Counted from the first letter of the stretch, positions 3,422 to 37,231 are shown. The stretch: DNA of 64,000 nt from Candidatus Colwellbacteria bacterium (GCA_016176525.1 JACOWZ010000003.1:385000-448999); one strand, 5' to 3'. Numbers and translations: made by a program. Notes: a model not told the origin generated them from the letters alone.

Positions 3422-4052
3422 ATTCTTTTAGTGTTAGAGAATTGATGCGGGTGAATTTGCCGACGCGGGTGCGCTCTAGCGCAGCTAGGTAGCCGCCGAC
3501 GCCGAGCTTTGCGCCAATGTCGCGGGCAAGCGAGCGAATGTAAACACCCTTACCGGTTTTTACGCGAATTTCCAAATATGGCCACTTGTATTTAATAAGT
3601 GCAATTTTTTTAATTTCAACTGGCCTTGGTTTTAACGCAGGAGTCTTGCCTTTGCGGGCCAATTGGTAAGCACGCTTGCCTTTGAGTTTTATTGCGCTGT
3701 ACGCCGGCGGGGTTTGCATAATTTTATCCTCAAAGGTTTTTAGCACTTTCTTTACGGTGTTATGATTGATCATAACACCGGTCTCTTCACGCTGCATCGG
3801 GCCTTCTGCATCATCTGTTGCGCTTGTGTACCCAAGTTTTATTTTTGCGATGTATTCTTTATCTGCGGCTACCTGCTTTTCTAGTTTGCGAGTATATTTA
3901 CGGCTGATTGCGACAACAAGCACCCCCTTTGCTAAAGGGTCTAGCGTACCGGCATGTCCGATTCGGCGTTCGCCGGTTATTTTGCGGAGTTTGTTTATTA
4001 TGTCGTGCGAAGTAGGGCCAGTGGGCTTATAAATACCAAAAATACCTTCCAA
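3396..4052 (-). CDS. truB: tRNA pseudouridine(55) synthase TruB
   Basis: GHAGTLDPLAKGVL catalytic motif; QTPPAYSAIKLKGKRAYQLARKG region. Contains the in-frame 8-aa insert GVMINHNT encoded by the palindrome. Confidence 0.9.
   Translation of the reverse strand: MEGIFGIYKPTGPTSHDIINKLRKITGERRIGHAGTLDPLAKGVLVVAISRKYTRKLEKQVAADKEYIAKIKLGYTSATDDAEGPMQREETGVMINHNTVKKVLKTFEDKIMQTPPAYSAIKLKGKRAYQLARKGKTPALKPRPVEIKKIALIKYKWPYLEIRVKTGKGVYIRSLARDIGAKLGVGGYLAALERTRVGKFTRINSLTLKEFASKYDKV
3756..3779. repeat. 24-bp palindrome copy B (GGTGTTATGATTGATCATAACACC), in-frame inside truB
   Basis: Read directly. Confidence 0.9.
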
Positions 4053-27233: not shown

Positions 27234-28292
27234 ATGGAACTAATATTCTTTGTTGTACTCACAATTGTTTTAATTGCCGGTTTCGGCCTGATTTTTTGGA
27301 CTTTACGCGGCGGTAAAGGCGAGGCTTCTGCGGGAAACTCGCTTAACCTTATTCAAAACCAGATAAACGAGCTTAATCGCACTTTAGACTCTAAACTTGG
27401 AGAATCGGGTAAGGCAATGCGCGAGCAGTTTTCTGAAAGCGCAAAGATTATTCGCGATGTAACCGAGAAACTAACCAGGCTTGATGAAACCAACAAGCAG
27501 GTTGTTAGTTTCGCGGACCAATTAAGGAGTTTGCAAGACATATTAAAAAATCCAAAACAGCGCGGAGTATTGGGTGAGTATTATCTTGAAACGCTTCTGA
27601 AAAATGTCTTGCCGCCTGATATATACAAAATGCAATATGCTTTTAAAAATGGTGATATTGTTGACGCCGTTGTTTTTGTAGGCAGGAAATCAGATGAGAA
27701 AATTATTCCGATTGATTCCAAATTTTCTTTAGAAAATTATAATCGGTTGGTTGAGGCAGCCGATAAGTCCGAAAAAGATCGCCTTGAGAAACTTTTTGTA
27801 AATGATCTCAAAAACAGAATTGTTGAGACATCAAAATATATCCGACCGGAGGAAGGGACTACTGACTTTGCTTTTATGTTTATTCCACATGAGGCAATTT
27901 ATTACGACCTATTAATTAACAAAGTTGGCGCAGTTTTGGAGGATACGGAAAATTTAATCCAGCGGGCCGCCGGTAAATACAAGGTTTTGATAGTTTCTCC
28001 AACTTCCTTTTTGGCATACCTGCAAACTGTTTTACAAGGCTTGCGTGCACTGAAAATAGAAGAATCTGCAAAAGAGATTAGGAAGCGGGTTGAGGAATTG
28101 GGCAAGCATATGTCGAGTTACGACACATATATGCAGAAGCTTGGTGCCCACCTTGGAACATCGGTAAATATGTATTCCAACGCGTACAAAGAGTTTAAAA
28201 AAATTGATAAAGACGTTTATCGTATAACCGGAGACAAAATGAATATTGAGCCTCTTACTGTGTCTGGCCCGGATTCGGCAGAAGATGAATAA
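27234..28292 (+). CDS. rmuC: DNA recombination protein RmuC
   Basis: N-terminal TM, long coiled coil, C-terminal RmuC nuclease-like domain (FAFMFIPHEAIYYDLL). Confidence 0.85.
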   Translation: MELIFFVVLTIVLIAGFGLIFWTLRGGKGEASAGNSLNLIQNQINELNRTLDSKLGESGKAMREQFSESAKIIRDVTEKLTRLDETNKQVVSFADQLRSLQDILKNPKQRGVLGEYYLETLLKNVLPPDIYKMQYAFKNGDIVDAVVFVGRKSDEKIIPIDSKFSLENYNRLVEAADKSEKDRLEKLFVNDLKNRIVETSKYIRPEEGTTDFAFMFIPHEAIYYDLLINKVGAVLEDTENLIQRAAGKYKVLIVSPTSFLAYLQTVLQGLRALKIEESAKEIRKRVEELGKHMSSYDTYMQKLGAHLGTSVNMYSNAYKEFKKIDKDVYRITGDKMNIEPLTVSGPDSAEDE

Positions 28293-35449: not shown

Positions 35450-35533
35450 GGGCAGATGGCGGAGTGGTCAATCGCACGACGCTGTAAACGTCGCGGCTTT
35501 ATGCCTACGCAGGTTCGAATCCTGCTCTGCCCA
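35450..35533 (+). tRNA. tRNA-Tyr (GTA), long variable arm, no encoded CCA
   Basis: Acceptor GGGCAGA/TCTGCCC, anticodon loop CTGTAAA, variable arm ~14 nt, T-arm GCAGGTTCGAATCCTGC. Confidence 0.8.
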
Positions 35534-35684
35534 CAAATCAAAAATGGATTGTCTTGCGCAATCCTATTTTTGATTTATGATGGTTAGATTAAGACAGGAT
35601 TCGAAGACCGCAGCGAAATCCGCCAGCTGGCGGATGAGCGAGGGGCGGCCTGCGAGCGCGACGAGCGACGGCGAGGAGCGACTT

Positions 35685-35709
35685 GTAGGAGAATCCTGCT
35701 CTGCCCACA
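35685..35709 (+). repeat. Direct duplicate of the tRNA-Tyr 3' end (GTAGGAGAATCCTGCTCTGCCCACA)
   Basis: 19 of 19 nt identical to tRNA-Tyr positions ~35515-35533 plus flanking similarity. Confidence 0.8.
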
Positions 35710-35740: not shown

Positions 35741-36331
35741 ATGACCAAACGTACTAAAAAGATTATTGATTTTTTGTACGAGATCGAGAAATTCAAACTC
35801 GTTGAAAGGCGGACATATTTGTCGAATCAAAAGAGGCATGAATCTGATGCCGAGCATGAGTGGCATATGGCGATGATGATTTGGCTTTTCTCAACTGTTA
35901 TAAAGAAAAAGTTTGATGTGTTTCATGCGATGAAACTCGCACTTGTGCATGACTTGCCGGAGATTTATGCAGGGGATACGTATAGGTTCGATCCTAAAGG
36001 CAATAATACAAAGAGAGCGCGTGAGGTGAAGGCGGCTCGCAAACTCTTTGCTCAACTACCTAAAGATTTAGATAAAGAATTCTGGGCGCTCTGGGATGAG
36101 TACGAAGAAAATAAAACTTATGAGGCTAGAATTGTGCATTTCGTTGATGGAACAAATCCAGGTATTCAGAATATGGTTTCAAAAGCCAAAGCATGGAAAG
36201 AGAATAAATTAGATAGGAAAAGCGTATTCAAGAGGAGAGATGAATTGCTTCAATATATCGACAGCAAAGAACTTAAGGATTGGCTCAATTCGTTAGTTGA
36301 TGAAGCTGTAAAAAAGAAGTATCTTATTTAA
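35741..36331 (+). CDS. HD-domain phosphohydrolase (YfbR-like 5'-deoxynucleotidase)
   Basis: ESDAEHEWHMAMM...LALVHDLPEIYAGD HD motifs. Confidence 0.8.
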   Translation: MTKRTKKIIDFLYEIEKFKLVERRTYLSNQKRHESDAEHEWHMAMMIWLFSTVIKKKFDVFHAMKLALVHDLPEIYAGDTYRFDPKGNNTKRAREVKAARKLFAQLPKDLDKEFWALWDEYEENKTYEARIVHFVDGTNPGIQNMVSKAKAWKENKLDRKSVFKRRDELLQYIDSKELKDWLNSLVDEAVKKKYLI

Positions 36332-36339
36332 GTAATTTT

Positions 36340-36411
36340 GCCGCCCTAGCTCAACGGCAGAGCAACTCTTTTGTAAAGAGTAGGTTGGGGGTTCGATTCC
36401 TCTGGGCGGCT
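36340..36411 (+). tRNA. tRNA-Thr (TGT)
   Basis: Acceptor GCCGCCC/GGGCGGC, anticodon loop TTTGTAA, T-loop TTCGATT; the T-stem has two G-U pairs. Confidence 0.7.
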
Positions 36412-36415
36412 CAAA

Positions 36416-36754
36416 ATGCCAAAGCAGGAGTTAATAAATTTAGAGCCAGAGAAACCATCTATAACAAAACTTAAAGAGGCTATATTTTCTTCTCCTGAAA
36501 AAATAGAGAGCGAGCTTGCTAAGGGCGGCAATGATTGGCTTGCTTGTTTTACAACAAGAGTGCAGGTTATAGAGGCGCTTTTTGGAAGCGCAATTAATGA
36601 TTTAGACGAGAGCGAAGACACGCGTTATAAAGAAAATATAGATTCGCTCAAAAAACATTTAGAAGAAGTTAGAGGGCGCTATCCTGTAGATGAAGAAGAT
36701 CCGCCGAAATATATAAAGAGCGAGCTTTTAGGTATGCTGGATATTTTGCACTGA
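36416..36754 (+). CDS. Hypothetical protein
   Basis: 112 aa acidic ORF between two tRNA-Thr genes. Confidence 0.4.
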   Translation: MPKQELINLEPEKPSITKLKEAIFSSPEKIESELAKGGNDWLACFTTRVQVIEALFGSAINDLDESEDTRYKENIDSLKKHLEEVRGRYPVDEEDPPKYIKSELLGMLDILH

Positions 36755-36779
36755 AGCATTTAGAATGTATTTACGCTTC

Positions 36780-36852
36780 GCCAATGTAGCTCAGTCGGTA
36801 GAGCAACTCCATGGTAAGGAGTAGGTCGCCGGTTCAATTCCGGCCATTGGCT
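36780..36852 (+). tRNA. tRNA-Thr (GGT)
   Basis: Acceptor GCCAATG/CATTGGC, anticodon loop ATGGTAA, T-arm GCCGGTTCAATTCCGGC. Confidence 0.8.
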
Positions 36853-36993
36853 CAAAATACAAAAGCATATCTTTATATTGATGGCCGAATTGAACCGTGG
36901 AAAGGGGTCGGGAAAACTAGTTTTCCCGTTGCGGAAATATTAAAACCGCAGGGTTTTAAAGAGCGAGTTGCTGTATAGCGACTCGCGACGTGA

Positions 36994-37012
36994 AATTCCG
37001 ACCATTGGCTCA
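36994..37012 (+). repeat. Direct duplicate of the tRNA-Thr(GGT) 3' end (AATTCCGACCATTGGCTCA, 1 mismatch)
   Basis: Read directly; an inverted partial T-arm copy lies at ~36881-36898. Confidence 0.75.
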
Positions 37013-37057
37013 AGGTTTGCGTTTTTTGGCATTCTAGTTTAATATTTTCTAACTCTT

Positions 37058-37231
37058 ATGGCAGTTAGGAAATTATCAGAAAACTTAATAAGGCTCCGAT
37101 GTGCCACCTGTAAGCGGGTTAATTACTATACGCGTAAGAATAAGAAAAAGGTGGAGCGAAAGCTGGATTATAAAAAGTTTTGTAACTGGTGCAGAAAGAG
37201 CACTACTCACAAAGAAGTAAAACTTAAGTAG
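37058..37231 (+). CDS. rpmG: 50S ribosomal protein L33 (zinc-ribbon form)
   Basis: 57 aa, missed by the ORF track; CATCKRVNYYTRKNKKK...FCNWCRKSTTHKEVK fits the L33 C4 pattern. Confidence 0.8.
   Translation: MAVRKLSENLIRLRCATCKRVNYYTRKNKKKVERKLDYKKFCNWCRKSTTHKEVKLK

Follow-up and report, generated by a model that had tools for sequence, protein, structure and literature searches.

The insert at 36853-37013, between tRNA-Thr(GGT) and the ribosomal protein L33 gene (rpmG), is one copy of a family of small, protein-less, strongly folded insertions that sit just after tRNA genes in Patescibacteria and carry both a direct and an inverted copy of the 3' end of that tRNA. The family is best explained as non-autonomous mobile cassettes targeting tRNA 3' ends, although the mobile nature is favored only somewhat over the alternatives and the route of insertion is inferred. 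The sequence analyzed, referred to here as the window, is a 64-kb segment from a Candidatus Colwellbacteria MAG, and the tRNA, cassette and rpmG features described in it lie on the plus strand. The original prediction, that two tRNA genes carry mini-inserts bounded by their own 3' ends and that these represent either a family of small tRNA-targeting integrative elements or remnants, or an unrecognised tRNA-linked structured RNA, is supported in both halves, with three refinements. The two inserts in the window belong to different core families, they are complete small units and not remnants of larger elements, and integration by an integrase is not shown, since no recombinase was found.

ARAGORN places an intact tRNA-Thr(GGT) at 36780-36852/3 (72.2 bits with the Rfam tRNA model), with a promoter-like site just upstream at 36738-36766. 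The 3' 20 nt (36836-36855, tRNA positions about 57-73 plus CAA; DR1) recur 158 nt downstream at 36994-37013 (DR2) with a single G>A change (19/20). No other match with up to three mismatches is present in the window, against 0.01 expected from shuffles. The variant CCGAC in DR2 equals the T-stem of the tRNA-Thr(GGT) in L069, a genome whose L33 is only about 60% identical to that of the window. DR1 is followed by an A/T-rich linker (36856-36876), a place that in most family members holds an intrinsic-terminator-like hairpin; here there is none. An antisense arm (36877-36897) is the reverse complement of the T-loop, the T-stem 3' strand and the acceptor 3' strand. Within it, 36881-36897 (ATGGCCGAATTGAACCG) is complementary to tRNA positions about 51-68 with one base deleted, and an exact 11-nt core pairs 36830-36840 with 36887-36897. 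All three predicted hairpins are present, at 36909-36928, 36930-36950 and 36963-36986, and the spacer folds better than all of 200 shuffles (z = -3.8). In addition, 36940-36947 pairs with 36952-59, and comparative data support this pairing as well as the TGCGG/CCGCA hairpin. The cassette is identical, over the part they cover, in three independent assemblies of other sequencing runs (L095-L097), whose contigs end inside it, so it is not an assembly artefact.

The same design is seen behind tRNA-Tyr(GTA) (35450-35534). Here the direct repeat 35517-35535 is matched 19/19 at 35691-35709, and the cassette (35535-35709) comprises a terminator-like hairpin (35536-35579), an antisense arm (35592-35605, with the inverted copy at 35595-35605) and a three-way-junction core (35595-35698), with a fold z of -5.2. 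The two inserts show no similarity to each other above shuffles, and neither do the Thr insert and the neighboring ORF112. The first 15 nt after tRNA-Thr(TGT) (36340-36412) and after tRNA-Thr(GGT) are, however, similar (36408-36426 versus 36849-36867, 17/19 including the tRNA end), and the start of the Thr insert therefore resembles the start-codon region of ORF112.

To ascertain whether the design recurs, loci were collected around rpmG from metagenomes (L006-L085) and around PCMT from genomes and assemblies. In 86 sequences, 15 of 177 tRNAs (Trp, Tyr, Leu, Thr and Arg; about 10% of the tRNAs sampled) have a copy of their own last 17 nt, with two mismatches or fewer, 69-244 nt downstream; the copies are 17-36 nt long. 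Most also carry an antisense arm and a conserved core, and in all 15 tRNA-proximal cassettes examined, 12-24 nt are complementary to the resident tRNA. Model searches add cases with decayed repeats (L019, L021, L026b, L059a) and one (L016) behind a tRNA that ARAGORN misses because of an intron. The layout is constant: the tRNA, usually an intrinsic-terminator-like hairpin with a T run, an arm antisense to tRNA positions about 54-75, a core, a short junction (GTGAC/GTGGC in type A, GACGTGA in type B), and the direct copy, which starts at position 56/57 and ends 0-4 nt past the discriminator (once 17 nt). The conserved GAA at the end of the arm is simply the complement of T54-T55-C56. The same 17-nt segment of one isoacceptor from different loci is only about 60% identical, and about 1% of pairs reach 16/17, yet the downstream copy matches its own tRNA exactly in most cases, which indicates local origin or rapid homogenisation. 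In these sequences, the base after the discriminator is almost always C, and the next two bases are C-A in 84 and C-C in 47 of 177 genes, so that most genes encode N73-C-A rather than CCA or random sequence.

The cores fall into two types. Type A, which includes the tRNA-Tyr insert of the window, is a three-way junction rich in tandem G-A motifs. An alignment of 17 copies showed compensatory changes at 17 of 18 predicted pairs, and the covariance model built from it (R1) finds 20 copies in 15 of 84 loci at E < 1e-7. It scores window 35595-35698 at 62.9 bits (E about 3e-18) and finds nothing else in the 64 kb. On the model-based alignment, 93% of cells are paired, against 69% in shuffles and about 40% when partners are slid, and none of 500 shuffles reaches the observed values; since the alignment is fitted to the model, these numbers lean towards it. 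The cores are only 60%-75% identical to one another.

Type B, the insert behind tRNA-Thr(GGT), consists of GGAAAGGGGUC, a hairpin, a pseudoknot-like region and a variable hairpin. The window core is 86% identical over about 72 nt to an insert behind tRNA-Trp in L069, with a score of 90 against 15.7 +/- 2.3 for shuffles. A small model (R2) then uncovered a third full copy, L069 723-905, which lies behind an intron-containing tRNA-Thr(GGT) and has a 19/19 repeat. The 5' domain of the window copy (36899-36928; 72.3 bits with R2) contains the invariant GGAAAGGGGTC followed by hairpin 1 (36909-36928), which has two A-U to G-C double changes across the three copies; the two compensatory pairs are in L069b, a copy from the L069 genome. 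Stem S1 (36930-34 / 36946-50) shows G-C to U-A and U-A to G-U, and stem S2 (36940-45 / 36954-59) shows U-A to C-G at two neighboring pairs in different sequences. Together (36930-36959), these stems make either an H-type pseudoknot or two alternative hairpins. Hairpin 3 (36963-36986) has a different sequence in each copy but occupies the same place, and the GACGTGA junction (36987-36993), immediately 5' of DR2, is conserved between the window copy and L069b. In total, at least five compensatory double changes are seen, although the changes were read by eye because MAFFT misplaces one gap. A related form, B2, shares GGAAAGGGGTC, hairpin 1 and the S2 hairpin (UUAGAAACC-GNG-GGUUUCUAA), but has its own closing helix with arms that are not tRNA-like. 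It lies between rpmG and tRNA-Trp in L053 (4158-4345) and L021 (1989-2100), and upstream of tRNA-Tyr in L079 (625-784), with no Rfam match. L079 also carries another short repeat family (TTTTCGGGAC... / CGGGATC...) with copies in two spacers of the same tRNA cluster (430-640 and 1110-1210).

Evidence for insertion and loss comes from several loci. L041 and L042, from different metagenomes, are 100% identical over 107 + 172 nt of flank and differ only by a 141-nt cassette bounded by a 19-nt repeat. Filled and empty sites thus coexist, although this single pair could equally reflect a deletion between the repeats. Cassettes stack in tandem in L064 (three copies), L026, L060 and L059, with the copy nearest the tRNA having the best arms, whereas distal copies have decayed or very short repeats such as CACA. 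L059a carries a downstream copy that resembles a different tRNA-Tyr, like that of L064, rather than the resident one. The tRNA-Thr(GGT)-rpmG junction is widely conserved. In most relatives rpmG lies about 20-90 nt after the tRNA, whereas in the window (rpmG at 37058-37231) the gap is 205 nt. The distance to the rpmG match is 17-67 nt in about 14 of 31 loci and 90-160 nt in most of the rest, values that run up to about 25 nt above the true gap because the match often starts at residue 7-9. In the Colwellbacteria relatives L108 and L109, the three spacers at the same sites are 8, 1 and 18 nt. In the window, an HD-domain gene (35741-36331) and ORF112 (112 aa, 36416-36754, starting 4 nt after tRNA-Thr(TGT)) lie between tRNA genes that are 1-8 nt apart in other Colwellbacteria. 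ORF112 has no homologue other than itself among 5.8 billion proteins, and the nearest PCMT homologue is 66% identical. The same Thr(GGT)-rpmG junction holds a type A cassette in L016, and the two type B cassettes of L069 have arms that match Thr and Trp, respectively.

No plausible open reading frame lies inside any insert; the only ORFs, of 46-55 aa, overlap the tRNA or the repeat. Genes next to cassettes are housekeeping genes (miaA, parB, alr, NYN and EamA), and no recombinase, transposase or reverse transcriptase was found in Pfam searches limited to 10 window ORFs of recombinase-like size (284-410 aa) and 10 ORFs next to cassettes. The only recombination-related hit among the window ORFs scanned is an RmuC-family gene (27234-28292), a nuclease family said to act at inverted repeats, for which no link to the cassettes is shown. 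Small ORFs do lie inside the tRNA/rpmG cluster in L112 (2169-2435), where a GIY-YIG Pfam hit is recorded, and in L016 (1326-1570), where the ORF looks GIY-YIG-like by eye only and is flanked by GC-rich hairpins (GCCCGCC...GGCGGGC). No copies of tRNA ends that would mark kilobase-scale islands were found within the 4-10 kb loci. No Rfam 15 family matches either type, at the gathering threshold or at E up to 10, in the window or in L064, L053 and L069, apart from tRNA itself and chance or hairpin-type weak hits. Scans of viral contigs with type A and type B motifs gave only chance matches, with low model scores and no hairpin. BLAST of both types against phages and of type A against plasmids gave no match. 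No description was found in the literature searched, the nearest being a report of group I introns in Patescibacteria tRNAs (PMC13011429).

Taken together, the window insert would be a somewhat aged copy of a cassette family of about 90-245 bp. DR2 has one change, and the antisense arm has one deletion and three transitions, all of which leave G-U pairs with DR2. Insertion is inferred to occur by recombination within the T-loop-to-3'-end block, following the same logic as tRNA-targeting integrases, with the incoming DNA carrying a replacement 3' end, and often a terminator, so that the gene survives; the enzyme would be supplied in trans or be a host function. The two arms are inferred to pair into a 12-23 bp helix that closes the core into a self-contained domain. 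As folded single-stranded DNA this helix would imitate the duplex target, as in integron attC or CTX-phage attP, and in RNA it would keep the antisense arm away from the tRNA. The tRNA-sense strand folds better in 16 of 17 elements, and G-U pairs outnumber A-C 21 to 8 (p = 0.024), although G-U enrichment in the arm helix alone was not informative (22 against 21). As there is no terminator between tRNA-Thr(GGT) and rpmG, the window cassette is probably co-transcribed with both, and DR2 recreates the original junction between the tRNA 3' end and the rpmG leader. Some features do not fit easily. The insertion chemistry is pure inference, the sequence just upstream of DR2 does not resemble the T-stem 5' strand, so that the inverted core-binding sites of a classical tyrosine-recombinase att site are not evident, and the repeat length, 4-6 nt in the distal units of L064 and L059, usually 19-23 nt and 36 nt in L047, fits no single known mechanism. 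If the cassettes are mobile, they show a way for a 100-200 bp non-coding sequence to enter essential tRNA genes harmlessly with arms that always match the local target, and would explain part of the odd intergenic content of the very compact Patescibacteria genomes. Independently of mobility, types A and B are two well-supported structured RNA or single-strand motifs from a phylum with few characterised non-coding RNAs.

A more speculative and rather unlikely possibility, not excluded by the data, is that the cassettes are retargetable elements, in which a small structured nucleic acid uses the arm complementary to the tRNA 3' end, paired with a copy of that end, to select or imitate its insertion site. 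The arms would be re-templated from each new tRNA at insertion, or soon after by template switching, in effect a protein-less, guide-bearing cassette mobilised by a host enzyme.

Among the alternatives, the one that survives best, though it is less likely, is a functional small RNA or cis-acting RNA domain linked to tRNA genes. The core would be a protein- or ligand-binding fold, and the antisense arm, the tRNA 3' half and the downstream copy would form a three-part switch or a processing stem coupling the cassette to tRNA or mRNA maturation, with copies spread by duplication and ordinary recombination. Indeed, the strong conservation of structure despite 25%-40% sequence divergence looks like long-term selection on an RNA (or single-strand) structure and could mean a host function rather than selfish mobility. 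The compensatory changes in the pseudoknot-like type B core, the free-standing B2 RNAs at a conserved place between rpmG and tRNA-Trp, the strand preference and the G-U pairing retained in the window arm also fit this reading. In contrast, most relatives lack the cassette at the same tRNA, filled and empty alleles exist in otherwise identical DNA, tandem stacking occurs with decayed or truncated arms in distal copies (L026b, L021, L019), and the same site holds type A in L016 and type B in the window. The strong terminators directly upstream of most copies argue against high expression, and no Rfam family matches.

Scars of larger integrated elements, with attL and attR left after deletion of the interior, are unlikely. 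The identity block from the T-loop to just past the 3' end probably corresponds to the classical att geometry of integrases that use the T-loop (Williams 2002, Nucleic Acids Res 30:866), and partial tRNA 3' halves without a core do occur nearby, in L002 (Tyr) and in L042 (3850-3890) and L053 (3915-3950), where tRNA-Thr 3' halves of a different sequence (variable region, T-arm, acceptor strand) lie directly behind an intact tRNA-Thr(GGT). However, more than 20 inserts all measure 90-245 bp and share conserved cores in the same order and orientation, none has an open reading frame or gene fragment, and the searches for distant tRNA ends and for matches in viral, phage and plasmid sequences, within the limits given above, were negative. 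Equally doubtful is replication template switching alone, in which a fold-back at the terminator hairpin and the palindromic T-loop (TTCGAA) produces a direct-inverted-direct triplication of the tRNA end. The tRNA 3' end, the terminator hairpin and the antisense arm do form one long quasi-palindrome centered on the hairpin loop in L064a, L019, L054 and L047, and in L047 both the 36-nt repeat and the palindrome include 17 nt of native flank. Weak miRNA-precursor-like Rfam hits span this hairpin, and the antisense arm extends 2-5 nt further into the T-loop than DR2, as if copied from the tRNA itself. Such switching cannot create the 60-150 nt conserved cores shared between unrelated genomes and different tRNAs, but, being a known mutational process in quasi-palindromes, it is a plausible way for the arms to be kept matched to the local tRNA. 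An ordinary feature of the locus is very unlikely: although the insert lies in the rpmG 5' region and its closing helix and three hairpins superficially resemble a cloverleaf, a degraded tRNA pseudogene is excluded because no tRNA-model match covers 36853-37013 at E up to 10 and the region is homologous to inserts behind other tRNAs and not to D or anticodon arms, and an rpmG leader is contradicted by the homologous core behind tRNA-Trp, downstream of rpmG, in L069 and by the short spacer before rpmG in most relatives.

Analogous to tRNA-targeting integrative elements (P4-like phage or island integrases that cross over in the T-loop), the cassettes lie behind an intact tRNA, have an identity block starting in the T-loop and ending just past the gene (0-17 nt), restore the 3' end and accrete in tandem at one site. 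They differ in measuring 90-245 bp instead of kilobases, in lacking an integrase or other gene, in carrying an internal inverted copy of the target and a conserved structured core, and in having no evident symmetric core-binding site at the right junction, where, from reading the sequences, the bases 5' of DR2 (GACGTGA, GTGAC, AGGA) do not resemble the T-stem 5' strand. With integron attC cassettes and the Xer-dependent CTX-phage attP they share the order of site copy, short cargo, and inverted arm, variable or structured loop and direct arm, as well as an imperfect hairpin with single bulged bases, structure conserved more than sequence, a strand preference and arrays that grow at one entry point. 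However, no R''/R' core motifs (RYYYAAC / GTTRRRY) or intI are present; by inspection the outer ends are tRNA acceptor sequence ending N73-C-A, the target is a tRNA 3' end and not attI or dif, and the loop is a conserved multi-helix fold. Like MITEs and other small bacterial repeats (Correia, RPE, BIME/REP), they are small, non-coding, hairpin-forming, non-autonomous and probably transcribed as part of neighboring units, but the arms are copies of the local target and not element-specific terminal repeats, the duplication is long and variable (4-36 nt), no parent insertion sequence is known, and R1, R2 and motif searches find only one type A and one type B copy in the 64-kb window, both at tRNAs. 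Casposons and Cas1-mediated CRISPR spacer integration probably share insertion at tRNA 3' ends with a long target duplication and tandem arrays; here there are no Cas1 or polymerase genes and no fixed 14-15 bp duplication, and an inverted target copy is present. From reading the sequences, hammerhead, twister, HDV, K-turn/C-D box, a primer-binding site for a mature tRNA (the copies end N73-C-A, not CCA), IS200/IS605, IS91 and IS110 bridge-RNA logic were set aside because the defining motifs or geometry are absent.

The group I introns of Patescibacteria tRNA genes (PMC13011429) are likewise structured RNA insertions that leave tRNA function intact in the same phylum, but they interrupt the anticodon loop (35/36 and neighboring sites) and self-splice, whereas the cassettes lie behind a complete tRNA, are shorter and have no group I core (no Rfam hit even at E up to 10). 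Interestingly, L016 (1630-1935) and L069 (442-722) have tRNA-Thr(GGT) genes interrupted after the anticodon GGT by related inserts of about 205-226 nt, probably group I introns of this kind, and each gene is followed by a cassette. ARAGORN misses both genes, and for L016, Rfam at gathering score finds neither the tRNA nor an intron. The cassettes may also complicate assembly and annotation, since three Logan contigs end inside the window cassette and the repeats create false partial tRNAs. A further arrangement, of nested tRNA genes, is seen in L098 (2018-2210) and L002 (3769-3985). A 5' half of a tRNA, up to the anticodon stem, is followed by an inverted repeat enclosing a complete tRNA of the same kind (tRNA-Thr(TGT), 2086-2159, in L098; tRNA-Tyr, 3829-3913, in L002) and then by the matching 3' half, as if a hairpin-flanked replacement tRNA had been inserted into the anticodon loop of the resident gene.
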